From contig CAZNEE010000001.1 in assembly GCA_964572255.1 (NCBI GenBank), positions 395,587 to 459,586 on the forward strand: 64,000 nt of DNA, given 5' to 3'. The stretch comes from an uncultured Planctomycetia bacterium. GTDB taxonomy: Bacteria > Omnitrophota > Gorgyraeia > Tantalellales > Tantalellaceae. The first letter of the stretch is position 1, and each line of letters opens with the position of its first letter. A program made the position numbers and the translations under genes. Shown in pieces: positions 31,326 through 56,220 of the stretch. The notes below the pieces were generated by a model. The model had not been told where the DNA came from, ran no database searches, and saw only the letters and a program-made list of their open reading frames with translations.

Positions 31326-31411
31326 TTCTCCCCCCTTAATTGTTGATACATTGTGTATACCATAAAAGGCGATGCGAGTCAAATAGTTGATGAGAATCTC
31401 AATATTAAAGT

Positions 31412-31481
31412 GAGTGGTAGGTACCTTTCGTGGGCCCCTCCGCCCGGTGTGGATCCTCCCACTCAAGGCACCTACCACTCG
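31412..31481 (+). repeat. Structured repeat family B, copy 2 (core-sense on plus strand)
   Basis: The identical 27-nt core GGGCCCCTCCGCCCGGTGTGGATCCTCCC. The outer stem is different but still self-complementary: GAGTGGTAGGTACC / GGCACCTACCACTC. Confidence 0.7.
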
Positions 31482-39836: not shown

Positions 39837-39890
39837 ATCCATAAGGGTAGTTATCCATAATAAGCACCTATTGACTTAATGGAGGGGGTC

Positions 39891-40958
39891 ATGACAGACA
39901 ATGTCCAAAAACTTTTCGTGGAGATGAAGGATAAGAACGCTTCAGATATCCACATAACCGCAAATTCACCCATACATTTCAGGATTGATGAAGAGCTTGT
40001 AAAGGTGAATGACAATATCTTAACACCCGATGAAACCAAGACCATTGCTTACAGTCTTATGAGCGATTTCCAGAAGAAAAAATTTGAAGAAGAGAAGGAG
40101 CTGGACTTTTCATTTTCACTGGAAGATATGGGACGTTTCAGGGTAAATATTTTTATGCAGAGATTTTGCGTAGGTTGTGCTATACGAAGAATACCGCCTG
40201 AGATAATGAGTATCGAGGAATGTGGTTTGCCGATCGACGTGGTTAAAGGTTTTTGTCATACCCCTAAAGGTCTGGTCCTCGTAACGGGCGCAACAGGAAG
40301 CGGCAAATCGACCACTCTCGCGGCCATGGTCGATGAGATAAACAAGACCCGCAAGTGTCACATCGTAACGGTGGAAGATCCGATAGAATTCGTCCACCAG
40401 AACAAGCAGGCCGTAGTTGACCAGAGAGAAGTGTTTTCCGACACGTTTTCGTTTAACAACGCTCTCAGGAATGTTCTAAGACAAGACCCTGATGTTATTC
40501 TGATAGGCGAACTTCGCGACCTGGAAACGATCCAGCAGGCAATGATCATTGCCGATACCGGACACCTCGTTCTAGGTACATTACACACATCAGACAGCGT
40601 GCAGACCATAAACCGTATAATTGACGTTTTTCCGTCACACCAGCAAAGGCAGATCAGGGTCCAGCTTTCTTTCGTTCTGACGGGGCTGATTTCCCAGCAG
40701 CTCATACAGTATAAAGACGGGTCGGGCATGGAGCTTGCGACAGAGATACTTGTCGCGACACCGGCGATAAGAAGCATGATCCGGGAAGATAAGGTGCACC
40801 AGATATATTCCATCATGCAGACTTCTCAGAATCTCGGAATGAGAACGATGAACCAGGCTCTCTTTGAGTTATACTCAGCCGGCAAAATATCCTACGATAG
40901 CGCGATATCGAAATCAGGAGATGTGGAAGAATTGCTTAAAATGATAGAAAAAATATAA
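39891..40958 (+). CDS. pilT: Type IV pilus retraction ATPase PilT
   Basis: Walker A LVTGATGSGKSTT, PilT-type Asp/His boxes. About 355 aa with no long N-terminal domain. GGAGGGGG RBS. Confidence 0.85.
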   Translation: MTDNVQKLFVEMKDKNASDIHITANSPIHFRIDEELVKVNDNILTPDETKTIAYSLMSDFQKKKFEEEKELDFSFSLEDMGRFRVNIFMQRFCVGCAIRRIPPEIMSIEECGLPIDVVKGFCHTPKGLVLVTGATGSGKSTTLAAMVDEINKTRKCHIVTVEDPIEFVHQNKQAVVDQREVFSDTFSFNNALRNVLRQDPDVILIGELRDLETIQQAMIIADTGHLVLGTLHTSDSVQTINRIIDVFPSHQQRQIRVQLSFVLTGLISQQLIQYKDGSGMELATEILVATPAIRSMIREDKVHQIYSIMQTSQNLGMRTMNQALFELYSAGKISYDSAISKSGDVEELLKMIEKI

Positions 40959-40971
40959 AAAGGAGATAAAC

Positions 40972-41421
40972 GTGATACTGAAAAGACAATTGGATGAAAG
41001 GCTCGGGGAAATACTTATCCGCAACGGCAATATTTCTGATGAGCAGCTGGGCAAGGCGCTGGATCTCCAGAAACGCGAAGGCGGGCTTCTGGGCGAAGTC
41101 CTTTCGAAGCTTGGTTATGTAAAGGAACTGGAGATCGTTCAGGCGCTTACCGCGCAATACGGGTTTCCGTACATTCCGCTGGAAAATTATGAATTGAACA
41201 AAAAGTGCGCGGAAATAGTTTCCGAAGATCTTGCCAGGCAGCATAATCTTGTTCCGCTTGATGTGATCGGGGGCCTGTTGACGGTCGCGATGTCTAATCC
41301 GCTGAACAAAAAGTCGATCGAGGAGACAGAGTCGCTTACGGGAAAAAAGATCCAGATCTTCATATCCACTGCTTCATCGATAAATGATTCTATCAATGAA
41401 CTCTATAGGAAAGAAGAATAA
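40972..41421 (+). CDS. Standalone MshEN (c-di-GMP-binding) plus GspE-N1 domain protein, with no ATPase domain
   Basis: Two canonical 24-aa MshEN motifs are separated by a 5-aa spacer: RLGEILIRNGNISDEQLGKALDLQ, then KREGG, then LLGEVLSKLGYVKELEIVQALTAQ. A T2SSE_N-like fold follows. GTG start with an AAAAGGAG RBS. Confidence 0.65.
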   Translation: MILKRQLDERLGEILIRNGNISDEQLGKALDLQKREGGLLGEVLSKLGYVKELEIVQALTAQYGFPYIPLENYELNKKCAEIVSEDLARQHNLVPLDVIGGLLTVAMSNPLNKKSIEETESLTGKKIQIFISTASSINDSINELYRKEE

Positions 41422-43139
41422 TGACAGACTCATTGCCGGGCAAAATATGTGATTTTCTTATAAAGAACAACCTTGTCACGGAAGAGGACCTTAACAAGTC
41501 CCGCGAGATATGCAAGGAGCAGGGCGGGAGTCTGGGCGATGTCCTGGTGAAGATGAACGCTCTTTCAAGGGAAGATCTTCTGACCGCGATGAGCGAAGGT
41601 CTGGGTTTTGCCCCGCTTGATCTGTCACGTTTCAATATTGACGAGGGAGTCATCAAACTTATCCCGCAAAAGATCTGTCAACGCCATCAGGTGCTTCCCG
41701 TCTCCAGGATCGGGAATATCCTTACTGTCGCTATGGTCGATCCGATGAATATATCGGCTCTTGATGACATAAAAGCTATCACCAAGATGGAAGTGGTGCA
41801 GGTGGTAGTCGATCAGGACAACATGCGGGAAGCTATCAGCAAATATTTCGAAAGATCCGCGAATGAAGAGATAAGCGAGATCATGGGCGATATAAGGACC
41901 TCGCAGATGGAGATGGTTACCGAATCGGATGAGGATGTCAGCTCCAGCGAACTTTTGCGCAGCGCTGAAGAAGCTCCGGTCGTAAAACTTACCAATCTCA
42001 TATTAAGCCGTGCGGTAAAAGACGGAGCCAGCGATATACTTATTGAGCCGATGGATAAGACCGCAAGAGTAAGGTATCGCATAGACGGCGTGCTCAGGGA
42101 AAATATGGAACCCCCAAAAAAACTTCACAGAGCCATAGTATCCCGCCTTAAGGTCATGTCGAATCTCAATATTGCGGAAAGAAGGCTGCCTCAGGACGGA
42201 CGCTTTAAAATACGGATAGAGAACAGGCGCGTGGATTTCAGGGTTTCCGTGATACCGTCCAGCATGGGGGAGAAGATCGCTTTACGTATTCTTGATAAAG
42301 CTCAGGCGACGCTGGATGTTGACAAGCTTGGGTTCAGCGAAGACGGAAAAAAGAAGCTCATCAGAGCTTCCTCAAAGCCACACGGAATGATCTTGGTGTG
42401 CGGTCCCACAGGCTGCGGTAAAACGACCACACTTTATTCGATAATGAATTACATAGATTCTCCCGAGCTGAATCTGGTTACGGTAGAAGATCCCGTAGAA
42501 TATGAACTGAAAGGCGTGAACCAGGTTTCCGTAAAGGAGGATATGGGCCTGACCTTCGCCGCCTGTTTGCGTTCTATTCTTAGGCAGGACCCGGATATTA
42601 TTTTGGTAGGAGAGATAAGAGATCTGGAGACCGTTGACACAGCTATCAAATCCGCGTTAACGGGGCACCTTGTACTCAGCACTTTACACACGAATACCGC
42701 CAGCGGTTCTATTGTAAGGCTTGTTAATATGGGAGTGGAGCCGTTTTTGATATCTTCATCGGTCGAGCTTGTCGCGGCACAGGCGCTTTTAAGAAGATTA
42801 TGTCCGGATTGCAAGGAAGCATATACGCCCGCAAAGGAGATCGCCGACAGGTATAAACTTTTTGATGAGAGCGGGGGAATTGCGAAAATTTATAAGCCGA
42901 AAGGCTGTAAGAACTGCGGTGATACCGGATATCAGGGCCGCGAAGGCATAATTGAATGCTTGGAGTTGACGCCCACTATCAAAGAACTTATTTTCCGGAG
43001 AGCCGAGGAACTCGAAATTGAAAGAACCGCGAAAAAAGAGGGCATGTCCACGTTAAGGCAGAACGGCATCGCAAAAGTACTTAAAGGCATTACATCGCTC
43101 GAAGAAGTATTAAGGGTCACGATGGAAGACAGAGGGTAA
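41421..43139 (+). CDS. pilB: Type IV pilus assembly ATPase PilB/GspE paralog 1
   Basis: Walker A LVCGPTGCGKTTT and a C-terminal tetracysteine (CPDC...CKNCGDTG). The N-terminal MshEN-like motifs are degenerate. Confidence 0.85.
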   Translation: MTDSLPGKICDFLIKNNLVTEEDLNKSREICKEQGGSLGDVLVKMNALSREDLLTAMSEGLGFAPLDLSRFNIDEGVIKLIPQKICQRHQVLPVSRIGNILTVAMVDPMNISALDDIKAITKMEVVQVVVDQDNMREAISKYFERSANEEISEIMGDIRTSQMEMVTESDEDVSSSELLRSAEEAPVVKLTNLILSRAVKDGASDILIEPMDKTARVRYRIDGVLRENMEPPKKLHRAIVSRLKVMSNLNIAERRLPQDGRFKIRIENRRVDFRVSVIPSSMGEKIALRILDKAQATLDVDKLGFSEDGKKKLIRASSKPHGMILVCGPTGCGKTTTLYSIMNYIDSPELNLVTVEDPVEYELKGVNQVSVKEDMGLTFAACLRSILRQDPDIILVGEIRDLETVDTAIKSALTGHLVLSTLHTNTASGSIVRLVNMGVEPFLISSSVELVAAQALLRRLCPDCKEAYTPAKEIADRYKLFDESGGIAKIYKPKGCKNCGDTGYQGREGIIECLELTPTIKELIFRRAEELEIERTAKKEGMSTLRQNGIAKVLKGITSLEEVLRVTMEDRG

Positions 43140-43162
43140 TTTAAAAAATAAAGGCAAAAAAG

Positions 43163-44872
43163 ATGAGTACATCTATAAGAAGCAGGATATTGAAGGCGAT
43201 CGAAAAGAGCGAATTTGTAGACAAGAATCGCTATCAGAATTTCCTGAACAAGAGCAAGGGAGGGAAGGAAGAGGATATCCTTAGGAGCCTTGTTGAGGAG
43301 GATGTTATTTCCGCGCAGAACCTGCTTACGGTATTGAGCGAAGAATTGGGCCTTCCCGCGATAGATGTATCTAAGATAGAACTTGATGATTCTGCGATGA
43401 GGACGATACCGGAACGCCTCGTGAGAAAATACAAAATTATACCCCTTTCACGCATCGGAAATTCACTCACTCTTGTCGTGTCAGATCCGACCGATGTCAT
43501 GGCTATCGACGATGTGCGCACCATAACAGGGTGCGAGATCAGTTTAGTTATTGCCGATCAGGCTGATCTGGAGAAAAAATTACTTTCGTATTACGAAGGC
43601 GAAGAGGATGATATTACCGACATCATTGACGAGGAAGCCGAAAGCGATGATATCGAGGTTTTGGGAAGATCGGAAAATCTTGATGTAGCGGATATTACCA
43701 AGAAAAGCAAGCAGGCGCCGATAGTCAAGATGGTGAACCTTATAATAAGCGAGGCCTTGAAGAACAGGGCAAGTGATATACACGTCGAGCCTCAGGAAAA
43801 ATCGGTAAGGATAAGGAACAGGATAGACGGCGCGCTTCAGGAAGCTTTTGATCTTCCGAAGAAGAACCAGAACGCGGTCATAGCGAGACTTAAGATCATG
43901 TCAAATCTTGACATAACGGAGAACCGGGTGCCTCAGGACGGCAGGTTCAGGATAAACATGGACGGAAGGGATATAGATTTTCGTGTATCGATCCTTCCCT
44001 GCAGGTTCGGCAATAAGATCGTTTTAAGAGCGTTGGATAAGAGCGGCCTTTCTTTCGGGCTGGAAACTTTGGGATTCCTTCCTGATACAATGAATGATTT
44101 CAAGCAGGCTCTTTCCAAACCGTTCGGGATCATACTTGTGACAGGGCCTACCGGAAGCGGGAAATCAACGACTCTTTATTCTGTCCTTAACGAAATGAAT
44201 GTGCCGGAGAGAAATATTGTTACCATTGAAGATCCCGTCGAGTATCAGGTGCAGGGCATAACCCAGATACCGGCTCGCCCGGACATAGGGCTCAATTTCG
44301 CGAGCGGCTTAAGATCGGTTTTGCGCCAGAGCCCCGATGTCATAATGGTCGGAGAGATCAGGGATTATGAGACGGCGGATATAGCGATCAAAGCTTCGCT
44401 TACGGGTCACATGGTCCTCAGCACTTTACATACCAACGACGCTGTGGGAGCGATCACGCGTTTGGTCAACATGGGAGTGGAGCCTTTTCTCATCGCTTCA
44501 AGTCTTGTTATGGCATGCGCCCAGAGGCTTCTCCGCAAGATCTGTCCGCATTGCAAAGTTAAAGCGGATCTTCCAAAAGAAGTATTAAGTGGTCTGAGAG
44601 AGAAGTATCCTGATATAATGGAACAGACAGATACGTTTTACAAAGGCAAGGGGTGCCAGAAATGCAACGATACCGGTTATCTGGGGCGTTTCGCGACTTT
44701 AGAAACAGTGCTGGTCGATGAGAAGATAAATGGAATGATCAACCGGAAAAAGTCTGAAGAAGAGATCAAAAAATACCTCAGATCAAAAGGTGTCAGGACG
44801 CTTCGTGAAAACGCGCTGATAAAATTCTGTAAAGGCTGGACGACTTACGAAGAGGTTTTAAGGGTAACTTAA
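43163..44872 (+). CDS. pilB: Type IV pilus assembly ATPase PilB/GspE paralog 2
   Basis: Walker A LVTGPTGSGKSTT and a tetracysteine (CPHC...CQKCNDTG). The N-terminal GspE_N domain lacks the RLG motif. Confidence 0.85.
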   Translation: MSTSIRSRILKAIEKSEFVDKNRYQNFLNKSKGGKEEDILRSLVEEDVISAQNLLTVLSEELGLPAIDVSKIELDDSAMRTIPERLVRKYKIIPLSRIGNSLTLVVSDPTDVMAIDDVRTITGCEISLVIADQADLEKKLLSYYEGEEDDITDIIDEEAESDDIEVLGRSENLDVADITKKSKQAPIVKMVNLIISEALKNRASDIHVEPQEKSVRIRNRIDGALQEAFDLPKKNQNAVIARLKIMSNLDITENRVPQDGRFRINMDGRDIDFRVSILPCRFGNKIVLRALDKSGLSFGLETLGFLPDTMNDFKQALSKPFGIILVTGPTGSGKSTTLYSVLNEMNVPERNIVTIEDPVEYQVQGITQIPARPDIGLNFASGLRSVLRQSPDVIMVGEIRDYETADIAIKASLTGHMVLSTLHTNDAVGAITRLVNMGVEPFLIASSLVMACAQRLLRKICPHCKVKADLPKEVLSGLREKYPDIMEQTDTFYKGKGCQKCNDTGYLGRFATLETVLVDEKINGMINRKKSEEEIKKYLRSKGVRTLRENALIKFCKGWTTYEEVLRVT

Positions 44873-44923
44873 TTCGTTTTCTTTAGATTTAACCAATCAT
44901 ACATATATAACGGGGGTCGGGGA

Positions 44924-46144
44924 ATGGCGAAATTCACATATATCGCAAAGAACAAAGAGGGCGCTACGGTAAAGGGCGAACTTGACGCGCCGGAGAAAGG
45001 TCAGGCGCTTGATATTCTGCGGGGCAAAGGGTTTTTGATCCTCAAACTTGAGCAGCTGCGGGAACTCTCCAATATTTTTTCCTCTTTTAAATTCAGAAAA
45101 GGCAAAAAAGTCTCCCTTGATGATCTTGTGGTTTTTTCAAGGCAATTGGCGACATTGATCGAATCAGGCATACCTGTTGTAAGTTCGCTGGATATACTTT
45201 CCGAACAGGCGGATAATGAGACCTTGAAGAGCGTTTTAATAGATGTAAGAGATTCGGTTAATACGGGATCCAGCCTTTCGGATGCGCTGCTTAAACATTC
45301 GGCTCTCTTTTCGTCCCTGTTCGTGAACATGGTAAGGGCCGGCGAATCCAGCGGTTCGCTGGACGTGGTTCTTGACAGGATCGCGACTTATCAGGAAAAA
45401 AAGAGCGCTTTGCAGAAAAAGATCAAGTCAGCTCTTATTTATCCTATGGTTGTTTCCGGCATGGCCGTTGCGATCACGCTCATTATGCTCTTGAAGGTAA
45501 TACCTGTTTTTAAGGATATTTTTTCAGGTTTCGGCGCTAAACTTCCCACGCCTACACAGCTTTTGATCAACCTCAGCGATTTTCTGATAAACAATTTTGT
45601 ACTGCTGATAATATTTTTTATCGTTCTTGGCATAGCTGTCAAAAAGTATGTAGATACGCCAAAAGGAAGGGCATTGATCGACAGGTACAAACTGCGGCTT
45701 CCTATCGTCGGTTCCTTAGCGACAAAAGTCGCCATAAGTAAATTCACCCGCACATTAAGCACTTTACTGAATAGCGGTGTGCCGATATTGACGGCTCTTG
45801 AGATCGTGGCCAAGACTTCGGGCAACGTTATTGTAGAACGGTCCGTTGACAATGTCAAAGAAAGCGTAAGAGAAGGAGAGAGCGTGGCAACCCCCATGGA
45901 AAGAAGCGGGATTTTTCCCCGCATGGTAACAAGAATGGTATCAGTCGGCGAAAAGACAGGGGAACTGGAGAAGATGCTCGCGAAAATATCGGATTTTTAT
46001 GATGAACAGGTTGACACGTCGGTGGAAGGCCTGACAAGTTTGATAGAACCTCTTGTTATCGCGTTTCTTGGTATTGTTATCGGAGGCATAGTTATCTGTA
46101 TGTTCCTCCCGATATTCAAGATATCGACCATAATCAATTTTTAG
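44924..46144 (+). CDS. pilC: Type IV pilus inner-membrane platform protein PilC (GspF family)
   Basis: 406 aa with two GspF repeats and three TMs. It follows the pilB genes. Confidence 0.85.
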   Translation: MAKFTYIAKNKEGATVKGELDAPEKGQALDILRGKGFLILKLEQLRELSNIFSSFKFRKGKKVSLDDLVVFSRQLATLIESGIPVVSSLDILSEQADNETLKSVLIDVRDSVNTGSSLSDALLKHSALFSSLFVNMVRAGESSGSLDVVLDRIATYQEKKSALQKKIKSALIYPMVVSGMAVAITLIMLLKVIPVFKDIFSGFGAKLPTPTQLLINLSDFLINNFVLLIIFFIVLGIAVKKYVDTPKGRALIDRYKLRLPIVGSLATKVAISKFTRTLSTLLNSGVPILTALEIVAKTSGNVIVERSVDNVKESVREGESVATPMERSGIFPRMVTRMVSVGEKTGELEKMLAKISDFYDEQVDTSVEGLTSLIEPLVIAFLGIVIGGIVICMFLPIFKISTIINF

Positions 46145-46293
46145 GGCTTAACTTTTGTACGGCTAACCGGTAAAAATTTCTTCCTATCGGTTTGCTTTTC
46201 TCAGTTTCAAAATGTAAACTAAAATCGAGGGTAGGTATATCTGGAAACAAATAAAACTTTTAAAAAGAGTCATAGAAAGGAGGTGAGGATAAA

Positions 46294-46641
46294 ATGATCA
46301 GAATGCGCAAATTACTAGGAAAGGGTGGTTTTACGCTTGTTGAAATTATGATTGTTGTCGCAATTATAGGTTTATTAGCCGCAGTGGCCATCCCGAACTT
46401 CATGCGTGCAAGACAAAGAGCGCAGACAAACGCTTGTATCGCGAATCTGAAACAGATGGACGGCGCGAAGACATTGTGGGCGCTGGATACAGGTGCTGCC
46501 AGCGGTGCTGCAGTGACCATGGCAAACCTTGTTACTGCGTACATAAAATCAACACCGTCTTGTCCCGCAAACGGTACTTACACGATCGGTGCAATAGGGA
46601 CTACTCCTACATGCACTGTTTCAGGCCACGCGCTGCCGTAA
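46294..46641 (+). CDS. pilA: Type IV pilin (prepilin-type N-terminal cleavage/methylation domain), tandem copy 1
   Basis: GKGG then FTLVEIMIVVAIIGLLAAVAIPNF is the class III signal. A C-terminal Cys pair (disulfide-loop region) is present. 115 aa. It has its own strong terminator. Confidence 0.8.
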   Translation: MIRMRKLLGKGGFTLVEIMIVVAIIGLLAAVAIPNFMRARQRAQTNACIANLKQMDGAKTLWALDTGAASGAAVTMANLVTAYIKSTPSCPANGTYTIGAIGTTPTCTVSGHALP

Positions 46642-46677
46642 TTACGGTAACGGTTTCAGCGGGCGCAAAATGTTTAT

Positions 46678-46714
46678 AAAAGGAGGCGATTCTTATCGCC
46701 TCCTTTTATATTTT
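46678..46714 (+). terminator. Rho-independent terminator after pilin 1
   Basis: GGAGGCGAT-TCTT-ATCGCCTCC forms a 9-bp stem, followed by TTTTATATTTT. Confidence 0.7.
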
Positions 46715-46781
46715 ATAACTTATGAAACTTTAGTAGGATTTGCCTTTTGCGCATATGATGGTATACTTAAGGCAAAAATTT

Positions 46782-47120
46782 ATGCTTACGATCAGAAAAA
46801 AACAGGGTTTTACGCTTGTTGAAATAATGATAGTTGTTGCCATTATCGGCTTATTGGCAGCGGTGGCTATACCGAATTTTATGCGCTCGAGGGAAAGAGC
46901 GCAGACCAATGCCTGCATTTCGAACTTGAAGCAGATAGCGGGAGCGAAGACATTATGGGCGATCGATTACGGCGCTATTACAGGAGATCCCGTTATGATG
47001 TCTGATCTGTGCACGGCATATTTTAAGACCGCACCTCAATGCCCCGCGGGGGGAACATACACACTGGGAGCGGTAGGGACCGAACCGACATGCAGTGTTT
47101 CCGGACATGAATTGCCTTAG
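46782..47120 (+). CDS. pilA: Type IV pilin, tandem copy 2
   Basis: KKQG then FTLVEIMIVVAIIGLLAAVAIPNF. A paralog of copy 1, identical over the N-terminal helix. Confidence 0.75.
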   Translation: MLTIRKKQGFTLVEIMIVVAIIGLLAAVAIPNFMRSRERAQTNACISNLKQIAGAKTLWAIDYGAITGDPVMMSDLCTAYFKTAPQCPAGGTYTLGAVGTEPTCSVSGHELP

Positions 47121-47138
47121 ATTTACAAGTCTTATCAC

Positions 47139-47486
47139 ATGAAAGTGATCTATCAAAAAAAAGGTTTCACTCTCATCGAAATAGTGCTTGTCGCCACTGT
47201 TATTGCCTTTTTGGTGGCTCTGGTCGTTCCGAATGCCATGCGCGCCAGGCAAAGATCACAGACGAATACATGCATTACGAATTTAAAACAGATAGCGGGC
47301 GCAAAAACCTTATGGGCTATTGAGGGGGGCCTGGTGAGCGGGGATACGATAGATCTTGCCGACATTATTTCGGCGTATTTCAAGGAAACGCCTGTCTGCC
47401 CCGCGGGAGGTACTTATACCATAGGAATGGTCGGTGTTGATCCCGCTTGCAATGTTCCGGGCCATGTTCTTCCGGAAAATGAATAG
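47139..47486 (+). CDS. pilA: Type IV pilin, tandem copy 3
   Basis: QKKG then FTLIEIVLVATVIAFLVALVVPN. More diverged paralog. Confidence 0.75.
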   Translation: MKVIYQKKGFTLIEIVLVATVIAFLVALVVPNAMRARQRSQTNTCITNLKQIAGAKTLWAIEGGLVSGDTIDLADIISAYFKETPVCPAGGTYTIGMVGVDPACNVPGHVLPENE

Positions 47487-47515
47487 ATCAAGATGAGCCG
47501 CGTCCCGTCATATTT

Positions 47516-49372
47516 ATGCATACACGTCGCGAAAATATATTAATCATTCTCATTCTTTTTACCGCTTGCGTTGTAACGTATCTGGCATCGGTCAATTTCG
47601 GGTTTATCTGGGATGACGAGTATTTAGTCGTCAATAACGCTCTTATCAGAGCTCCTTTATGGTCGTTCCAGCCGTTCAAGCAGGACATAATAAATTCGAA
47701 TTTTGTCTACACGATATACTATCGGCCCCTCCAGATATTAAGTTACGCTGTTGATTACCGCATTTGGGGGCTATCGCCGTTCGGGTTTCATCTTTCGAAT
47801 ATTTTATTTCATTTTTTGAACGGGCTGCTCGTTTTTGCGCTCACCTTTAAACTCACGGATAAAAAAGACATAGCGGCCCTTACGGCGATCTTTTTCCTGG
47901 TGTATCCGCTGCACGCGGGAGCCGTATCATACGTTTCGGGGAGAGCGGACCTGGTGTCATTCTTTTTCGGGTTTTTATTTTTTATTTTCTTTTTGCTTTT
48001 TAAAGAGAAGGGGAAGATCGGTCTATTCGCGGGCAGTGTGATCTTTCTCTTGGCCGCCGTTCTGAGCAAGGAAATAGCTCTTATATTTCCGGTACTGCTT
48101 CTTCTGGCGGATTATATCATGCTTAAGGGGAAGTACAGGTTCAGGATCATCCATCACGTGCCGAATTTTATTTTAGCCGCTTCTTATATTTTCCTTCATC
48201 ACGCCCTTTTCAGCGGAAGATATTCACCGCTGTTAAAAGGCGGCTTTTTAAAAAAGGCCCTTGATTACTTCACCATGACAGGAGAATTTTTTCTTCTTAG
48301 CTTTGCTCCCGTAAATCTCTACATGCGGCGGGAGATCCACATGACCTCTTTCGAGCTGGCAGGACTGATGATCCTTTTAGGCATCATCTTTTTTCTCATG
48401 TTCCGTTTTAAAGACATCAGGAGGATATCCTTTTTCGGTATCATGTTTTTCGCAGCGGCGCTTATTCCTCTTGTATTTGTCATGGATCATTTCGGCGTTT
48501 TCGCGGAACACTGGATGTATGTTGCCAGTTACGGCGTATTTCTTCTTATCTCCGCGGTCTTGATAAGGCTTTTCCGGCAAAAAAATGTTTTCCAAAAAGT
48601 ATTAGCGGTCGCTTTAATTTTGTTTTTAATATTTTTTCACGCTTCCGGAACGGTCGGCCAGGTTGCTCACTGGAGGGATGATGTCGCCTTGAGCGACCTG
48701 ATTCTCGCCTCTTCCGGAAAGGATTCGGCCGCCGTGTTCTACAAGGCAGCTTCTTTTATGAGAAATAGATCGCCTTTGCGGTCGATAGAGTTGATGGATG
48801 AATATGTCGGACAAAGCCCCTCGGATCTCAGAACGCTTTATATAAGAGGAAGGCTTAATTTGGCGGCGGGGAACACGGAAAAAGCGGTTAAGGATTTTAA
48901 AAGAGCGATCGAGATAAATCCTCTTTACGATAATGGGCATTTGGGCATGGCATACGCGTCTTTTATTTATGGCGATGATGAAAAGGGGATAAGTTATCTG
49001 GAACGCGTAATTGAAATAAACCCGAAGCACAGAGAGGCGCTTTTGGTCTTGAGCACGGCATACTCTTCGGCGGGCGAGAATGAAAAGGCCCTGGAGGCGG
49101 CTGAAAAAGCTAAAAAAATGAATCCTTATGATTACAACGCCATTGTGAATTTGGGCACCGCGTATTCACGCATGGGGGGCCTGCAGGAAGCGGCGACACT
49201 TTATTTAAAAGCTATTGATCTTTATCCGGAAAGGCCCGTTCCATATTATAACCTGGGCTATGTTTTTTATCTGGGAGGGGAGAAAGAAGAAGCTGAGATA
49301 TATCTTCGGAAGGCTTTGGAAATAGACCCCAATTTCCGGCAGGCGATCGAGCTGTTAAACAAACTAAAATGA
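47516..49372 (+). CDS. TMTC-like GT-C membrane glycosyltransferase (DUF1736/PMT-like) with C-terminal TPR repeats; candidate pilin O-glycosyltransferase
   Basis: N-terminal FIWDDEYLVVNN...YYRPLQILSYAVDYRIWGLSPFGFHLSNILFH matches the TMTC family signature (DD(E) loop and YRPL motif). About 10 TMs, then TPR repeats. It lies directly 3' of the three pilin genes. Confidence 0.55.
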   Translation: MHTRRENILIILILFTACVVTYLASVNFGFIWDDEYLVVNNALIRAPLWSFQPFKQDIINSNFVYTIYYRPLQILSYAVDYRIWGLSPFGFHLSNILFHFLNGLLVFALTFKLTDKKDIAALTAIFFLVYPLHAGAVSYVSGRADLVSFFFGFLFFIFFLLFKEKGKIGLFAGSVIFLLAAVLSKEIALIFPVLLLLADYIMLKGKYRFRIIHHVPNFILAASYIFLHHALFSGRYSPLLKGGFLKKALDYFTMTGEFFLLSFAPVNLYMRREIHMTSFELAGLMILLGIIFFLMFRFKDIRRISFFGIMFFAAALIPLVFVMDHFGVFAEHWMYVASYGVFLLISAVLIRLFRQKNVFQKVLAVALILFLIFFHASGTVGQVAHWRDDVALSDLILASSGKDSAAVFYKAASFMRNRSPLRSIELMDEYVGQSPSDLRTLYIRGRLNLAAGNTEKAVKDFKRAIEINPLYDNGHLGMAYASFIYGDDEKGISYLERVIEINPKHREALLVLSTAYSSAGENEKALEAAEKAKKMNPYDYNAIVNLGTAYSRMGGLQEAATLYLKAIDLYPERPVPYYNLGYVFYLGGEKEEAEIYLRKALEIDPNFRQAIELLNKLK

Positions 49373-49497
49373 GCATGTCAAGTTAGCACTCTTTCTTGAC
49401 ATTATATTAGCCATATGATACTCTTAATTGAAATATATACTATTATTTTTAATTATTTTATGAGTTTTCGCATTAGACACATATACCCTGATTGAAT

Positions 49498-50523
49498 ATG
49501 ATCGTTAAATTTGGCCAAAAAACCCAGGAATCTGTAGGGCTCGATATAGGGGACTATTCTATCAAGGTAAGTTCCATCAAAAAAGAAGCCGACAGGAACA
49601 TTCTTACCTCATATAATTTAAAAAAGATCCCCCCGGAAGGAAACAAGGCGGAGAAACTTTCTCAGCTGATCAAAGAGACGCTGGATGAAGTGGGGGTTGC
49701 CCCGGAAGACGTGAATTTCTCTGTGTCGGGCTCTGATGTTATAGTGAGATTCATCGATCTTCCCAAGATGACCAAAGAACAGCTGGACAATTCAATGGCT
49801 TATGAGGCCGAAAAATATATACCGTTTAACGTGAATGAAGTGGTAATGGATTCGGTGATACTCGGACGGGCTTCAGAAGCGGGGCAGATGAGGGTCCTTC
49901 TTGCGGCGGTGAAGAAAGATTATCTCGAATCAAGGATCAAAGTGGTGGATAAGCTCGGCTTCGGGGTCAATGTAGTGGATATAGATCCTTTTGCCGAGTT
50001 CAATGCTTTTTTAGCCGCGAAGAACAATCTCCCCAAGGATAAAGGGACCGCCTTTTTTGATTTCGGGCATACGCATACCAATATGCTGATATCCATAGGC
50101 GAAGCCCCGTGTTTCATGAGGCAGATACAGATAGGCGGCGCGGACATAACAAATACGATAGCGGAGGACCTGGGGATCTCCGCTAAAGAAGCCGAAGAAT
50201 TGAAGACCAAAAGCGATGAAGAGACGAAAAATAAAGTCTCCCGGTCAACTTTTTCGGTTCTCGATGAACTTATCAAGGAGATGCAGCTTTCATTCGGCTA
50301 TTTTGAGAACAGGTTCAATGAGCCCATCGGCAACTTTTATTGTTCCGGGGGGCAGACATACCAGCAGGGAGTTATTGAATATATACAGGAAAAGGTCGGT
50401 GCTAAAGTGGACAGATGGGACCCGACTGCCGGAATGGTCTTGGCCGAAGACCTTTCAAAAGAAGCGGTCAGTTCCATCGGCTCTCAGCTTGCGGTAAGTA
50501 TCGGATTAGCATTAAGAGGTTGA
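49498..50523 (+). CDS. pilM: Type IV pilus assembly protein PilM (actin-like ATPase fold)
   Basis: VGLDIGDYSIKVS N-terminus, about 340 aa. It is followed by pilNOPQ. Confidence 0.8.
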   Translation: MIVKFGQKTQESVGLDIGDYSIKVSSIKKEADRNILTSYNLKKIPPEGNKAEKLSQLIKETLDEVGVAPEDVNFSVSGSDVIVRFIDLPKMTKEQLDNSMAYEAEKYIPFNVNEVVMDSVILGRASEAGQMRVLLAAVKKDYLESRIKVVDKLGFGVNVVDIDPFAEFNAFLAAKNNLPKDKGTAFFDFGHTHTNMLISIGEAPCFMRQIQIGGADITNTIAEDLGISAKEAEELKTKSDEETKNKVSRSTFSVLDELIKEMQLSFGYFENRFNEPIGNFYCSGGQTYQQGVIEYIQEKVGAKVDRWDPTAGMVLAEDLSKEAVSSIGSQLAVSIGLALRG

Positions 50524-50591
50524 TAGTAGTAAGCGGATTACGCGAAAGGTATCCACTATTCGCGTAGCCCACTCACAACATATAACGAATT

Positions 50592-51263
50592 ATGATAGAG
50601 ATAAATTTACTGCCGAAAGAACTCAGGAAAAAGAAGAAGAAAGCGAAAGAGGTTTCGGTTTCCTCTATTTCTCTGCCGGTTTTTGAGGCGCAGATCCTGC
50701 CGATATGCGCGGGCGTGATAGGCCTTTTTATCTCGCTCAATATCATCGTGTCGTTCTTGACCGGCGTCAACAATTTCAGGGCCGCGAGGATGGGGTCCAC
50801 GTGGACCGAACTCCAGCCTCAAAAAGAAATAATGGATAGAATGAAAAAAGAGAGAGGCGAGCTTGAAATAAAATTGGGGCTGGCCAACAAGGTCAGCAAT
50901 CCTTATGTCCAATGGACGCGATTGCTCAGCGGGCTTAATCAGTCGGTGATCCCCGGAATTTGGCTAGAGTCTTTCAAACCGGTTTTTCCCGCGGCAGGCA
51001 GGAAGGGCAGCGCGGAGAGCGCTAAATTCCCCACAATGCTTAAACTTAACGGGTATGCTTTAGGGGAGAGCGAGGTGGCGACCGCGACCGTCGCGAGATT
51101 CATAAACAGCCTCAAGAGCAATGAAGATTTTTCCACGTTTTTTGATGATATCGAGATGCAGGATATACGGAGCAAAGTGATGGACGGCAAGGAAGCCATG
51201 CAGTTCGATATTTTGTGTAGATTTAAACCAAGGGGAACGGCCCCCGCGGCCGGGAAAAGGTAA
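50592..51263 (+). CDS. pilN: Type IV pilus assembly protein PilN
   Basis: MIEINLLPKE N-terminus (INLLP motif) and a single TM. Confidence 0.75.
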   Translation: MIEINLLPKELRKKKKKAKEVSVSSISLPVFEAQILPICAGVIGLFISLNIIVSFLTGVNNFRAARMGSTWTELQPQKEIMDRMKKERGELEIKLGLANKVSNPYVQWTRLLSGLNQSVIPGIWLESFKPVFPAAGRKGSAESAKFPTMLKLNGYALGESEVATATVARFINSLKSNEDFSTFFDDIEMQDIRSKVMDGKEAMQFDILCRFKPRGTAPAAGKR

Positions 51264-51265
51264 AA

Positions 51266-51880
51266 ATGGCGAATATAAATCCGGGCCTGGATGAGCTTAC
51301 GGAAAAAATTCAGGTGTTTCTCAGCGATGAGAAACACAGGACCTATACGATTATCGGCGGAACTGTCCTCATAGCGGTATTTTACACCATGTTCGCCGTT
51401 ATCCCCGGCATAGGCAGGCTGTCGGAAGCTTCCGGAAAAGCCGGTGTTCTAAAGAAAAAGATCAATATCGTCAGAAAACATGCCGCGCAAATGAATAATT
51501 TCCAGGCTCAGCTTGAAACGCTCAAAACGCGCGACAAAAGCTATGCCAAGCAGTTCTCCGATAAAAAAGAAACAACGGTTCTCCTGGAAGAGTTCGCCCA
51601 GATGGCGCGGAAATATGATGTTGATATAGTGAGCATCACCCCTTTAGAACCGGCGAAACCGGCCCAACAGGCGGATAAAACAAAACAATATTTTGAGGAG
51701 ATGCCGCTTCTTATAACGGCTAAAAGCGGGTATCACCAGCTCGCGCATTTCGTGAACGATCTTGAAAGCGGGAGCCGCCTCATAACTGTCGAGGATCTTG
51801 AGATAACCGATGATAAGAAGAATGCCTGGCGGCATAACGTAAGAATCGTTTTAAAAACATATATTGCGGCGAGCCTATAA
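51266..51880 (+). CDS. pilO: Type IV pilus assembly protein PilO
   Basis: Bitopic protein with a coiled coil and a C-terminal GYHQLAHFVNDLE...RLITVEDLEI pattern. Confidence 0.7.
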   Translation: MANINPGLDELTEKIQVFLSDEKHRTYTIIGGTVLIAVFYTMFAVIPGIGRLSEASGKAGVLKKKINIVRKHAAQMNNFQAQLETLKTRDKSYAKQFSDKKETTVLLEEFAQMARKYDVDIVSITPLEPAKPAQQADKTKQYFEEMPLLITAKSGYHQLAHFVNDLESGSRLITVEDLEITDDKKNAWRHNVRIVLKTYIAASL

Positions 51881-51881
51881 T

Positions 51882-52244
51882 ATGAAAGCAGCAAGTACAA
51901 TATTGATCATTTTATTTTTATGCCCGGCGGTTGTTCTTGCCGGCAAAGAAGTCCCCGCGGAGAAATTCAAGTATAATTCGTACGGACGGAGGGATCCCTT
52001 TGTTCCTCTTGTCGGCATAAAAGAGCGCAGAGGGACAGGAGGGGTCGCGAGCATCCTTACGGTGGAGGATATTTCGCTTCAAGGGATCCTGACAAATCCT
52101 GACGGGACAAAAAGCGTTGTTATAAACGGCGATATAATGAAAGAAGGAGATCAGATAGAACGCCTGAAAGTCGTGCAGATAGGCGAAAATTCCGTGAAAG
52201 TAGAACTTAATGACACAAATTACGATCTAAAACTGTATAAATAG
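51882..52244 (+). CDS. pilP: Type IV pilus assembly lipoprotein PilP
   Basis: Signal peptide with LFLC lipobox, an RRDPF motif, and a beta-domain (VVINGDIMKEGDQI...VVQIGENSVKVEL). Confidence 0.65.
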   Translation: MKAASTILIILFLCPAVVLAGKEVPAEKFKYNSYGRRDPFVPLVGIKERRGTGGVASILTVEDISLQGILTNPDGTKSVVINGDIMKEGDQIERLKVVQIGENSVKVELNDTNYDLKLYK

Positions 52245-52263
52245 ATCACAAAAGGGGGAGGGT

Positions 52264-53883
52264 ATGGTTACCACTAGAACAAATGCGGCAATAAAGATCC
52301 TGAGCGTTATTCTTGTTTTCGTTTTCGCGACTTTCAATATCGAAAGCTGCGCGTTTGCCCAGAGCGAGGGTTCCGCGGGGCAGATGCAGCCGGACATGCC
52401 GAAACCGGGCAATGTCACCGTGAACTTCAAGGACGTCGATATTTTATCCGTCCTCAACTATCTTTCGGAAGTAAGCGGTGTGGATATTGTCCCGTCACCC
52501 GGCGTCGATGCCGTGGTCACGATGAAATTGAGGGATAAACCCTGGGAAGTCGCGCTGGATATCGTGACAAGGAATTATGGTTACGTTTATTCTCGCGAGG
52601 GGAATATAATCCGCGTTGTTCCGAAAAGCAAACTGCAGATGGAAGAAGCTATTACGGAGGTTATTCCTCTGAACTATGTTGTTGAGGATACCGAGGGCAA
52701 GGAAAAGAATATAACGAAACTAATGGAAGCGGTTACATATATCATTGACGAGAGGGCAGGCGAAAAGGCGACTTTTCTTCCGAGTGCGAACGCTATGGTA
52801 GTGACAACTATTCCCACGAGAATGACCGCTATAAAAGAGATGGTGAATAAGGTCGATAAGAAAACGCCGCAGATCATGCTGGAAGCGAAGGTCATAGAGA
52901 TCACACTGGACAGGAACGATCAGTTCGGCGTGGATTGGAATGCCGTTGTTACTGCTGCGGGCGCTCAAAGGCCAACTACTTTTCCTTTCACGAATACTGG
53001 TATTTTAAATTTTTTACCTGGAGAACAAAGAAGATATTTTCCAACTGATACAACGGGTATCGACAGTGCCGTTTTTCCTCTTACGGATACCACCCCGATA
53101 AGTGCAGTTACGGTTGCAGAATATTTTCAATATGGCACTCTTGATTTCAGCACTTTTACTGCAACACTCAGACTCATTGATGAATGGGATAATACGAACA
53201 TCATATCAAGCCCCAGAATTACAACATTGAACAACCAAACTGCCGTAATAAAAGTCATAACCAATTTATACCTACAGAAGCAGCAGAAAACTACAGATAC
53301 AGCAACGACGGTTACCGTTGAATTCGAAAAAGATCCAAGAGAAATTGGTGTTATTCTTGAAGTTACCCCTCACGTTAATGATAGAGGTGAGATAGCAGTA
53401 AATCTTAAACCGGAAGTTTCCAGTGACATCACCTTTCAGACATTAGAAGTGCAAGGCGGCAATCAAACCCAAGCTTTAAGGTATAACACCAGATCCGCAG
53501 ATACTCAGATAATGGTTAAAGACGGAGAGACTATTTTTATTGGTGGCCTTATAAGCGAGACGATCACAAAAGAGGACCATAAGCTTCCTATTTTGGGCGA
53601 TCTTTTCGGGGGGATACCGGTTATTGGCAGTGCCTTCAAGTACGAACAGGATAATAAAGATAAAACTGAAGTTGTTTTCTTTGTTACTGTCCATTTGTTA
53701 AAAGACGGTGTACATTCAATAAAAGCATCAGATACAGTTGATGAGTATAATAAGCATTTTCCGAAGAAAGAGCCCATTATACTGCAGGGGCAAGTAAAGT
53801 CTGTAGAGCATCAGGAAGAGATAGCAGTAGCCGCGGCGGAAGAAAAAAAATATAAACCGTTTTTGGATTTCAGGAAAAAATAA
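52264..53883 (+). CDS. pilQ: Type IV pilus secretin PilQ
   Basis: C-terminal secretin domain (TPQIMLEAKVIEITLDRNDQFGVDW ... GETIFIGGL...LPILGDLFGGIPVIGSAFK...TEVVFFVTVHLL). 539 aa. Confidence 0.85.
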   Translation: MVTTRTNAAIKILSVILVFVFATFNIESCAFAQSEGSAGQMQPDMPKPGNVTVNFKDVDILSVLNYLSEVSGVDIVPSPGVDAVVTMKLRDKPWEVALDIVTRNYGYVYSREGNIIRVVPKSKLQMEEAITEVIPLNYVVEDTEGKEKNITKLMEAVTYIIDERAGEKATFLPSANAMVVTTIPTRMTAIKEMVNKVDKKTPQIMLEAKVIEITLDRNDQFGVDWNAVVTAAGAQRPTTFPFTNTGILNFLPGEQRRYFPTDTTGIDSAVFPLTDTTPISAVTVAEYFQYGTLDFSTFTATLRLIDEWDNTNIISSPRITTLNNQTAVIKVITNLYLQKQQKTTDTATTVTVEFEKDPREIGVILEVTPHVNDRGEIAVNLKPEVSSDITFQTLEVQGGNQTQALRYNTRSADTQIMVKDGETIFIGGLISETITKEDHKLPILGDLFGGIPVIGSAFKYEQDNKDKTEVVFFVTVHLLKDGVHSIKASDTVDEYNKHFPKKEPIILQGQVKSVEHQEEIAVAAAEEKKYKPFLDFRKK

Positions 53884-53898
53884 ATTCAAACTCCTCCT

Positions 53899-54234
53899 AT
53901 GAATATCCGCTATGAAGCAGTCTTCCATAAGAAGGGAGATATGAAATATATCTCCCATCTGGATCTCATGAAACTTTTTCGCAGGGCGATGAGAAGAACG
54001 GATCTCCCCGTTGTCCTCACGAAAGGGTTCACTCCGAGAGTCAAGATCAGCATACCTAAAGCGCTTAAGCTGGGCGCTGAAAGCGATAATGAGAACATGT
54101 CCTTGTGGATGACCGAAAAGATAGAACCTGAGCGGGTACAAAAAACCATAAACGCCGAACTGCCCAACGGCATAAAAATACTGATACTGGGGACGTCCTA
54201 TTCAGGGACACCCCTAAGCACAGAAAAAGAATAA
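53899..54234 (+). CDS. DUF2344 (TIGR03936-like) protein, short form; usual partner of the TIGR03960 radical SAM and RNase G/E
   Basis: MNIRYEAVFHKKGDMKYISHLDLMKLFRRAMRRTDLPVVLTKGFTPRVKISIPKALKLGAES matches the DUF2344 N-terminus. Only 111 aa. Confidence 0.55.
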   Translation: MNIRYEAVFHKKGDMKYISHLDLMKLFRRAMRRTDLPVVLTKGFTPRVKISIPKALKLGAESDNENMSLWMTEKIEPERVQKTINAELPNGIKILILGTSYSGTPLSTEKE

Positions 54235-54269
54235 TTTTGCGGGTTTTTATATATTTTAGAAAGGCATAA

Positions 54270-55817
54270 ATGCATACGAGAAGATCAGGAGCAAAAGAAC
54301 ATAAAAAGACGGGCAAAGAAGTCATTGTAAATGTAGGCCCCGTTGAGAAACGGATCGCGCTTTTAGCTGACGGAAAATTGGCGGATTTTTTCATGGAACG
54401 GGAAGGGATCGAGCAGCACGCCGGAAGCATTTATAAGGGGAAAGTGAGCTCGATCATACCCGGCATCGAAGCCGCTTTTGTCGATATAGGGCATAAGAAG
54501 AACGCGTTTCTTCATGTAAGCGATGTCGTGGATAAAAGTTCAGTGCTTAAGGAGATACTTCCGGATGAAGATGAGCCGGTCATACAGGTACAAAAAAAAG
54601 GGAAACAGCCCAGGATACAGGATATCCTGAAAACCGGCCAGGAGATCATGGTGCAGATCGTAAAGGAATCCATCGGCACAAAAGGGGCGAGGGTGACATC
54701 ATACATAAGTATTCCGGGCAGGTATCTGGTCCTCACGCCTTTTGACGGAGGATTCGGAGTCTCGCGGCGCATAGGAAACAGAGAAGAACGGAAACGGATC
54801 AGGGAAATATTGACCAAGATAAAAGCCCCCTCCGATGTGGGATGTATAGTCAGGACGGTCGCGGAGAACAGGTCCGAAAAAGAGCTTAAAGACGAGTTCA
54901 GATATCTTCTGAATCTGTGGGAAAGGGTCAGGAACAGAGAGAAACGCCAGCCGGCGCCTGCCATGATCTATGAAGAATACGGTATTATACTCAGGATGAT
55001 ACGCGACCGTTTTACCGAAGACATAAGCCAGTTCATAGTTGATTCAAAAGACGAGTATAACCGCATCATCAAATTTCTCAAAGCTTTCATGCCGTCGCTC
55101 AGGCAGAAAGTGAAGTTATATAACGGTAAAGTCCCCCTTTTTCAGAAATATGATATAGAAAAAGAAGTGGACATGATATTCGAGAGGAAGATCCCTCTTA
55201 AGAGCGGGGGGTATCTCGTTATTGAACAAACGGAAGGCCTTGTTGCTATCGATGTAAACACCGGAAGCTATACCGGGAAAAAGGGCTTGGAATACACCGC
55301 TTTCAGGACCAACATTGAAGCGGCGGAAGAGATACCGAGACAATTGCTTTTAAGGGATGTCGGCGGGATAATCATCATTGATTTCATTGATATGGAAGAG
55401 AAACATCACCGTGATAAAGTTTTCGAAAAACTCCAGGAAAACCTGCGCGGCGATAAAGCAAGGATAAATGTAAGAGGCATATCCCAGTTCGGCATAGTCG
55501 AGATGACGCGCCAGAGGCAGAGAAAAAGCATAGAAAGCACTTCCCACATCGAATGCCCTTATTGCGGGGGAAAGGGTTCGGTAAAGAGCTCAGAGACAAT
55601 AGCCATTGAAACGGCGAGAGAGGTCGATAAAGTGCTTTCAAAAAGCGCCAAGAAACATAAACATATAACTGTTACGATGCATCCGCATATTCACGCGGTA
55701 CTGGTGTCGGATCAGGCAAGGGTATTGCGTGACATACAGAGAAAATACCGCTGCAAGATAGATCTTAGGGAAGACAGATTATTGCATGTCGAGGATGTTA
55801 TAATAGAAGAAGCATAA
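54270..55817 (+). CDS. rng: Ribonuclease G (RNase E/G family)
   Basis: S1 domain (GSIYKGKVSSIIPGIEAAFVDIGHKKNAFLHVSDV), a DNase-I-like catalytic region, and a Zn-link CPYCGGKG. 515 aa. Confidence 0.85.
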   Translation: MHTRRSGAKEHKKTGKEVIVNVGPVEKRIALLADGKLADFFMEREGIEQHAGSIYKGKVSSIIPGIEAAFVDIGHKKNAFLHVSDVVDKSSVLKEILPDEDEPVIQVQKKGKQPRIQDILKTGQEIMVQIVKESIGTKGARVTSYISIPGRYLVLTPFDGGFGVSRRIGNREERKRIREILTKIKAPSDVGCIVRTVAENRSEKELKDEFRYLLNLWERVRNREKRQPAPAMIYEEYGIILRMIRDRFTEDISQFIVDSKDEYNRIIKFLKAFMPSLRQKVKLYNGKVPLFQKYDIEKEVDMIFERKIPLKSGGYLVIEQTEGLVAIDVNTGSYTGKKGLEYTAFRTNIEAAEEIPRQLLLRDVGGIIIIDFIDMEEKHHRDKVFEKLQENLRGDKARINVRGISQFGIVEMTRQRQRKSIESTSHIECPYCGGKGSVKSSETIAIETAREVDKVLSKSAKKHKHITVTMHPHIHAVLVSDQARVLRDIQRKYRCKIDLREDRLLHVEDVIIEEA

Positions 55818-55818
55818 T

Positions 55819-56220
55819 ATGCAGAATAATAAAGGTATAACGCTTATTGAAGTTGTAGTATCAATAGCTCTGGCAGCTGTGGTGATAGTTTCTGTCCTTG
55901 TCGTTGTCGCCCAGAACGCTACTTTTTCCGTTAGGATAGATTTGGTTTATGATTGCGCTAACCTTGCCAGAAAACAGATAGATGATCTTAAGCGTTACAA
56001 TTTTAGAGATCTCGACAGAGCGGCTGAAGTGAATACACGTGTTGATGAAGAGGGGCAACCTGACATCAGCGGTAATTATTATAGAACAACAGCGATCACA
56101 GAGGACTACGGCGGAAATGATTATCTTACAAAGGTGAAGGTGAGTGTGGATAAGATAATAGACGAGAAGGCTTCCGGCCATCCGGTTATTATAGAGACAT
56201 TATTTGCGGATGTAGACTGA
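55819..56220 (+). CDS. Minor pilin / pseudopilin (prepilin-type N-terminal methylation domain)
   Basis: NNKG then ITLIEVVVSIALAAVVIV is the class III signal. 133 aa. Confidence 0.65.
   Translation: MQNNKGITLIEVVVSIALAAVVIVSVLVVVAQNATFSVRIDLVYDCANLARKQIDDLKRYNFRDLDRAAEVNTRVDEEGQPDISGNYYRTTAITEDYGGNDYLTKVKVSVDKIIDEKASGHPVIIETLFADVD

Follow-up and report, generated by a model that had tools for sequence, protein, structure and literature searches.

The locus analysed here raises the question of what a polytopic membrane protein with a tetratricopeptide repeat (TPR) tail does in the middle of a type IV pilus gene cluster. The analysed stretch, referred to below as the window, was 64 kb of DNA from an uncultured Omnitrophota bacterium, and the protein in question, of 618 aa, was encoded by an open reading frame (ORF) at 47516-49372 on the plus strand, starting 29 bp after the third of three tandem pilin genes. 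The original prediction had taken the pilins and this ORF for a pilin O-glycosylation module; its observation was confirmed in part and its interpretation supported in part. The reading favoured here, with modest confidence, is that the 618-aa protein is a pilus-dedicated, periplasm-facing O-glycosyltransferase that would transfer a sugar from a polyprenyl-phosphate carrier onto pilins in the inner membrane, with its TPR domain selecting the folded pilin.

The polytopic protein with FIWDDE, YYRPL and HLSNILFH signatures and fused TPRs, as previously described, was present in the 618-aa ORF (signatures at 47603-47620, 47717-47731 and 47789-47812, respectively), and its modelled fold was that of a GT-C glycosyltransferase. 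Residues 1-395 (47516-48700, plus strand) formed a GT-C membrane domain of 11 helices with a cytoplasmic N-terminus. The remainder (residues ~396-617, ~6.5 repeats; 48701-49372, plus strand) was a periplasmic TPR domain that matched many Pfam TPR families (E down to 6e-25) and folded into helical hairpins in the AlphaFold model. This topology, including the periplasmic side of the TPR domain, was derived from DSSP helices and the positive-inside rule. The full-length AlphaFold model had a predicted local distance difference test (pLDDT) score of 93.4 and a predicted template modelling (pTM) score of 0.92, and the membrane domain alone had a pLDDT of 90.8. TPR structures dominated the Foldseek matches of the full-length model, and the membrane domain was therefore modelled alone for the fold search. 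With this domain the top 19 matches and most of the top 50 were GT-C enzymes, the leading ones at a probability of 1.00, among them yeast and human STT3, archaeal AglB, ArnT, PglB, Pmt4, EmbB and DPY19. The best match was 8age_A (E 2.9e-5, TM-score 0.61), with ArnT at 1.5e-4 (5f15), and PglB (6gxc) and Pmt4 (9i5k) were also found. The likeness to ArnT (GT83), PMT (GT39) and STT3/PglB/AglB was thus one of fold (Foldseek probability 1.00, TM-score 0.45-0.61 on the query), whereas identity was only ~12-16% with no match at the sequence level, and those enzymes have neither a TPR domain nor a link to pili.

Conservation was read from two alignments, of 46 and 32 relatives. D33, D34, R70, P71, H92, P131, R143, E186, P318, Y335 and W386 were invariant among the 46 relatives, Y69 was invariant in the 32-sequence set, and D145, E331, H332 and W333 were at least 90% conserved. 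According to the model and the charge distribution, the motif residues D33/D34, Y69-R70-P71, R143/D145, K185/E186 and E331-Y335 all lie on periplasmic loops, and they correspond to ligand-binding motifs published for TMTC and ArnT. The acidic pair D33-D34 (47612-47617, plus strand), in the first periplasmic loop after helix 1 and invariant in both alignments, is predicted to be the catalytic or acceptor site, and is equivalent to motif M1 of the TMTC proteins, to D55/E56 of ArnT and to the DDX motif of TfpW. Further along the same strand, Y69-R70-P71 in periplasmic loop 1 (47720-47728) matched TMTC M2 (SHKSYRP) in its YRP core only, R143-A-D145 at the periplasmic end of helix 4 (47942-47950) matched M3 (RxD), and K185-E186 in periplasmic loop 3 (48068-48073) matched M4, KE(T/Q)xxT, for which phosphate and metal binding has been proposed (PMC7801869). 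E331-H-W-M-Y335 in periplasmic loop 5 (48506-48520) resembled M7 (ERxxY); this counterpart reads EHWMY in the window protein, while some relatives have ER.

Profile searches gave a different picture. The check originally proposed, a hidden Markov model scan for DUF1736 and PMT_2, turned out negative, as neither family was matched by the 618-aa protein or by its isolated membrane domain even at E<=10. Pfam PMT (PF02366) was likewise unmatched by the protein at E<=10, a scan of NCBIfam returned nothing outside the TPR part, and the family profile found nothing among PDB sequences at E<=10. Among the 32 relatives, PMT_2 (PF13231) was matched by 10 (best E 3.9e-9) and PMT by seven, and DUF1736 (PF08409) by none at E<=1. 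Membership of the 618-aa protein in PMT_2/PMT, judged from these sequence matches, would therefore be transitive only, by way of its relatives. Together with the modelled fold and the conserved residues, this places the protein among GT-C enzymes of the ArnT/PMT/TMTC type; its layout resembles that of TMTC, yet it falls outside the Pfam definition of that family.

The animal proteins TMTC1-4, cadherin O-mannosyltransferases of the GT-C/PMT clan, share with the 618-aa protein the arrangement of 11 helices followed by TPRs on the side of the active site (PMC7801869). Five of their seven motifs were collinear with it, namely DD, the YRP core, RxD, KE and E-x-x-x-Y (PMC7801869), and the spacing was nearly equal (positions 26/65/139/186 in TMTC2 vs 33/69/143/185 here). 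It differs from them in having no DUF1736 match, in lacking the DW motif of loop 4, which reads PVNLYMRR, in the H of loop 5 where TMTC has R, in its shorter membrane domain and in its bacterial host; the likeness itself was read from published motifs. The animal enzymes transfer mannose from dolichyl-phosphate-mannose to cadherin-type domains, an acceptor not implied for the window protein. The earlier assignment to a TMTC-type family thus held for motifs M1, M3 and M4 and for the 11-helix-plus-TPR design, with partial counterparts of M2 and M7, but not for TMTC membership at the level of Pfam.

A closer functional precedent is TfpW of Pseudomonas aeruginosa/paraeruginosa group IV strains, which was compared through its published description. 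TfpW, a protein of 646 aa with its N-terminus in the cytoplasm, spans the membrane with 11 helices, ends in a periplasmic TPR domain, depends on a DDx motif in periplasmic loop 1, and was best modelled on ArnT; its gene lies immediately downstream of pilA, and it is required for the addition of D-arabinofuranose to group IV pilins (bioRxiv 10.1101/2020.04.19.049825). Both proteins are therefore ~620-650 aa long with 11 helices, a loop-1 DDx, a periplasmic TPR domain and an ArnT-like fold, and both genes are directly downstream of a pilin gene. The original prediction had placed only TfpO-type enzymes, of the O-antigen-ligase kind, at this position in Pseudomonas, which does not stand, since TfpW, a GT-C enzyme with TPRs, adjoins pilA there. 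The gene tfpO also lies downstream of pilA and TfpO modifies pilin, but TfpO/PilO and PglL belong to an O-antigen-ligase-like fold family (Wzy_C), of which the 618-aa protein showed no match, and TfpO and PglL transfer a preassembled oligosaccharide from a diphosphate carrier.

The parallel with TfpW had limits. The proline-rich motif YX6PFX7P in periplasmic loop 4 of TfpW was absent from the window protein and from all 46 relatives in a regular-expression search, genes for D-arabinofuranose synthesis were not seen in the window, and the GT-C/TPR gene also precedes pilMNOPQ, which tfpW does not. The 120 best sequence relatives included no Proteobacteria apart from two Deltaproteobacteria metagenome-assembled genomes, and TfpW was not recognisable among them. 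Membership of the 618-aa protein in a TfpW family is thus not established. Because TfpW has the same architecture and position, the design is not new in kind, and would be a counterpart of TfpW assembled from a bacterial family that resembles TMTC. The literature search yielded no report of GT-C/TPR enzymes linked to pili in Omnitrophota, nor of TMTC-like proteins in bacteria.

The gene neighbourhood was examined in the orthologue contexts available in assemblies and in 77 loci from species-representative genomes, in which neighbours were labelled by BLASTP against the pilus proteins of the window. The best relatives of the 618-aa protein were all from Candidatus Omnitrophota, and an identical copy was found on a short ENA contig (P0001). 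In ~25 Omnitrophota species the orthologues were without exception part of a type IV pilus cluster, in most cases with the pilin(s) on one side and pilM on the other. The order pilT-MshEN-pilB-pilB-pilC-pilin(1-3)-GT-C/TPR-pilMNOPQ-RNase G-minor pilins was found in 16 species-level loci (orthologues at 41-52% identity), with the number of pilins in the slot varying by species from one to three, and five more loci had a pilin upstream of the GT-C/TPR gene before the contig ended; a pilin upstream of this gene was seen in more than 20 loci. The same slot was retained in the distant Omnitrophota loci L028, L047 and L052 (28-30% identity). In L014 and L024 the gene was tail-to-tail with the pilin end of an inverted pilT...pilin block, with housekeeping genes on the other side, no pilM nearby and pilMNOPQ elsewhere; a search for sugar-donor genes upstream of the gene in these two loci found only housekeeping genes on the opposite strand. 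Outside the phylum, Chthoniobacterales (Verrucomicrobiota) had four pilins (L073) or two pilins (L075), each followed directly by a homologue, and in a third Verrucomicrobiota locus (L072) the homologue was embedded in a pilus cluster. A metagenome sample of eight loci seeded with PilM added two more cases of the gene before pilM.

A neighbour-joining tree of the membrane domains placed the pilus-linked copies of Omnitrophota in one clade and the Verrucomicrobiota copies in another, both apart from a large radiation of tandem-array paralogues without pilus genes. Since the gene keeps its place in type IV pilus clusters, pilin glycosylation is the most economical explanation. The module first proposed is plausible on this ground, although the linkage is to the whole pilus cluster and not to the pilins alone.

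Loci from two species suggested what else the slot may contain. In L012 (3998-8769) and L032 (4601-9926), three polytopic membrane genes were inserted exactly between the pilins and the GT-C/TPR gene, encoding proteins of ~500, 525-587 and 483-492 aa, two of which matched PMT_2; one match in L012 was above the gathering score (29.5 bits vs a cut-off of 26.1). Because extra polytopic genes were inserted there, and two of the three matched PMT_2, the interval between pilin and GT-C/TPR gene appears to behave as a glycosylation island. The first protein of this cassette had no Pfam match and carries a DPDLWGHLKFG motif.

The three pilin genes were on the same strand, as predicted, although their products were 115, 112 and 115 aa rather than all 115 aa. 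Pilin 1 (46294-46641, plus strand) had a strong Shine-Dalgarno sequence and an N_methyl match at E 3e-6; pilin 2 (46782-47120, plus strand), a diverged paralogue, was read from its ATG, the mechanical ORF beginning at a TTG at 46740, and matched N_methyl at E 3e-9; pilin 3 (47139-47486, plus strand; N_methyl E 3e-5) was a more diverged paralogue. All three were above the Pfam gathering score of N_methyl, that is, the class III signal peptide/N-methylation motif G|FTLxE with its hydrophobic helix. Copy 1 was 72% identical to copy 2 and 55% to copy 3 in protein sequence, and the copies were 62-67% identical in DNA. The N-terminal helix, stated to be the same in all copies, was identical over 26 residues (FTLVEIMIVVAIIGLLAAVAIPNFMR) in pilins 1 and 2, but differed at many positions in pilin 3, and the motif string quoted with it was exact in copy 1 only. 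Recent gene conversion as the source of the identical helix was ruled out, because 14 of its 26 codons differ between the two genes; the helix is instead kept by selection. The C-termini, which had been considered diverged, contained a segment (CPAGGTYTxG...P.C.V.GH.LP) among the best conserved parts of the pilins, and divergence was concentrated in mature residues ~52-66, in the loop following the long helix.

A parallel came from a solved pilin. The closest structure to pilin 1 was Thermus thermophilus PilA4 (6xxd, E 8.5e-12 over the full length), in which the loop following the helix bears O-linked glycans on Ser59, Ser66 and Ser71 (PMC7203116). HMMER aligned Ser66 of PilA4 with T81 of pilin 1 and Ser71 (KSTP) with S86 (KSTP), and the T of the KSTP motif was Ser/Thr in 87% of first-copy pilins. 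By analogy, this alignment of glycosylation sites offers a suggestive parallel, not proof.

A terminator had been placed after copy 1 only, and this agreed with the sequence: an intrinsic-terminator-like hairpin (46675-46710, plus strand), with a 16-bp stem containing 6 G-C pairs followed by a T run, was found after the first pilin and after no other copy in the window. A comparable hairpin and T run followed the first pilin in all 19 loci tested, including those with a single pilin, within 0-110 nt of its stop codon; the position was kept while the sequence differed (e.g., L003:7906+, L013:9455+ and L028:9912+). The conserved hairpin resembles a terminator or attenuator that would separate the major pilin from the downstream gene. 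In all related clusters the first pilin was 62-84% identical to pilin 1; since pilin 1 is orthologous to these hairpin-followed first pilins, the earlier proposal that it is the major pilin is reasonable. Because the terminator separates the GT-C/TPR gene from the highly expressed first pilin, this gene is probably expressed at a low level, either alongside the secondary pilins or together with pilMNOPQ. Matches to the sigma-70 consensus in the 119-bp gap upstream of pilM were only weak, and no conclusion on operon structure was drawn.

These elements can be combined into a possible mechanism. The pilins would wait in the inner membrane, anchored by their N-terminal helix, with a small globular domain in the periplasm. 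The active site, formed by D33/D34, Y69-R70-P71, R143/D145, K185/E186 and E331..Y335, would lie on the periplasmic side of the 11-helix enzyme, which would move a sugar from a polyprenyl-phosphate carrier to Ser/Thr residues of the globular domain while the periplasmic TPR domain held the folded pilin acceptor. The genes, their conserved neighbourhood and the fold, topology and conserved motifs of the enzyme are shown here, whereas we infer the O-linkage, the donor and the acceptor, which may be the major pilin, its paralogues and/or minor pilins; mannose as the sugar would be a pure assumption by analogy.

Several observations weigh against pilin glycosylation. The 618-aa protein itself matches no GT-C model of Pfam or NCBIfam, and the family profile matches no PDB sequence. 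No gene for the synthesis of a lipid-linked sugar was found in the scanned parts of the window, Ser/Thr positions in the pilins were only moderately conserved, and the neighbour-joining tree carries no support values. In one locus of the PilM-seeded sample (L086:165-1628, PilM 47% identical) a pilin was followed directly by pilM with no GT-C/TPR gene between them. This contig begins just upstream, so the GT-C/TPR gene may lie elsewhere. In L001/L006 and L005 the GT-C/TPR gene stands at the head of the pilMNOPQ block, preceded by the fatty-acid genes plsX-fabH-fabD and with no pilin close by, and for this reason a component of the machinery could be the target or partner of the enzyme.

This last arrangement is the starting point for an alternative in which the enzyme is active but modifies another part of the pilus, such as the minor pilins, PilN/O/P or the PilQ secretin, and not the major pilin. 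Nearly all loci have the gene directly upstream of pilMNOPQ, in L001/L006, L005 and probably also L007/L041 it heads this block with no adjoining pilin and with minor pilins downstream, and the conserved terminator stands between the gene and the first pilin. We nevertheless regard this alternative as unlikely, because L014 and L024 retain the gene beside a pilin without pilM, only pilin arrays are found upstream of the homologue in L073 and L075 of Verrucomicrobiota, and the precedents TfpW, TfpO and PglL act on the major pilin. The constant proximity to pilMNOPQ would also suit a mainly structural assembly factor, in which the TPR part served as a pilotin of the PilF/PilW/Tgl kind for the secretin or alignment complex and the membrane domain was chiefly an anchor. 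Those pilotins are likewise TPR proteins tied to type IV pilus genes, no other TPR protein was found in the cluster, and the TPR part gave sub-threshold scores to NCBIfam type_IV_pilW (67.5 bits, cut-off 154) and Tgl (36, cut-off 225). TPR matches of such strength are, however, generic, and pilotins are small outer-membrane lipoproteins, whereas here the TPRs are fused to an inner-membrane enzyme that starts with a membrane helix and is held by 11 of them. A purely structural role would also have to accommodate catalytic-type residues invariant across 46 relatives and the large arrays that the same family forms without linkage to pili, and it appears quite unlikely.

Those same arrays, together with the presence of ArnT among the best fold matches, would favour a general envelope glycosyltransferase whose acceptor is either a lipid or glycan, as for ArnT, or many different proteins, and which came to lie in the pilus cluster by historical accident. 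The family has greatly expanded in Omnitrophota; in L034 and L033, at a distance from pilus genes, up to nine copies lie in tandem. But the pilus-linked copies form their own clade, the slot was retained from 28% to 52% identity and across two phyla, and the TPR domain points to a protein partner, which together make this reading very unlikely. Pilin glycosylation by a dedicated enzyme thus remains the reading favoured here.

Arrays of GT-C/TPR paralogues not beside pilus genes were found in nine Omnitrophota loci (L034, L033, L031, L042, L043, L048, L056, L062 and L076). Nine consecutive genes were present in L034 (4456-20898), and seven within 21 kb in L033 (1-11833 and 16082-18067), which belongs to a complete 1.8-Mb chromosome (CP070807.1). 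This is a striking expansion for small genomes. A broader and doubtful scenario would make the pilus-linked GT-C/TPR enzyme an ancestral, built-in part of the pilus in Omnitrophota and some Verrucomicrobiota, coating pilins with sugar as they leave the membrane, and a member of a bacterial sister group of the animal TMTCs; the arrays of up to nine paralogues in these tiny genomes would then make up a large, domain-specific system of protein O-glycosylation, with the acceptor of each enzyme chosen by its TPR domain.

Should the pilins be glycosylated, this would be the second case after TfpW, independently evolved or very distant, of a GT-C enzyme with TPRs serving type IV pili, and the first in phyla related to the Planctomycetes-Verrucomicrobia-Chlamydiae (PVC) group. 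It would also give the bacterial TMTC-like proteins a defined, small and folded acceptor, and hence a tractable model for acceptor selection by TPRs in an enzyme class with a link to brain malformation and hearing loss in humans. For Omnitrophota a life in attachment to other cells has been proposed, and pili coated with sugar, if confirmed, could affect adhesion and phage resistance in these bacteria. The significance is moderate, and lies mainly in a model, open to testing, of how TPR-bearing GT-C enzymes choose their acceptors and of pilus biology in Omnitrophota.

The pilins and the GT-C/TPR gene were part of a long type IV pilus supercluster identified by Pfam scans, which spanned 39879-59639 with all genes on the plus strand. 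It opened with a PilT-like retraction ATPase (39879-40958; T2SSE E 2e-49), with an orthologue at the same position in ~20 loci. This was followed by a small stand-alone MshEN-domain protein of 149 aa (40972-41421; MshEN E 5e-19), also kept in position, and by two PilB-type assembly ATPases, copy 1 at 41421-43139 (T2SSE E 1e-141 plus MshEN) and copy 2 at 43163-44872 (T2SSE E 2e-135 plus MshEN). The succession of a stand-alone MshEN protein and two full-length PilB-type ATPases, each with its own MshEN, was kept in this order clade-wide. The platform protein PilC (44924-46144; T2SSF E 3.5e-64) preceded the pilins.

Downstream of the GT-C/TPR gene were PilM (49492-50523; PilM_2 E 2e-47), PilN (50592-51263), assigned from a weak PilN match (E 1.3e-3) and its conserved position, PilO (51266-51880; PilO E 2e-17), a PilP-like protein (51864-52244), with weak T2SSB and CdsD_C matches and a conserved position between pilO and the secretin, and the secretin PilQ (52264-53883; Secretin E 7e-41 plus STN). 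A gene for RNase G (RNase E/G family; 54270-55817) was embedded between pilQ and the minor-pilin genes, an arrangement that recurred in nearly all related loci. The supercluster ended with three minor-pilin-like genes (55819-59639; N_methyl and PilX_N matches), encoding proteins of 133 aa, 753 aa and 385 aa (PilX-like), in an order kept in related loci. The 753-aa protein (56220-58481) had an N-terminal pilin-type N-methylation motif and no further Pfam match; it would be an unusually large minor pilin, and was 50-64% identical across related clusters.

The remainder of the window contained a cell-division/murein cluster and mreB-rodA. Another enzyme-TPR fusion was encoded on the minus strand (29385-31478), a 697-aa protein with a Sulfatase-family domain (E 3e-32) and C-terminal TPRs. 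Finally, the metagenome contig Ga0180438_10104380 (L088:1-2420) had 100% protein identity to the 3' end of the window pilM and 87-93% identity over pilN-pilQ, which suggests that the sampled community contained the same population or a very close one.

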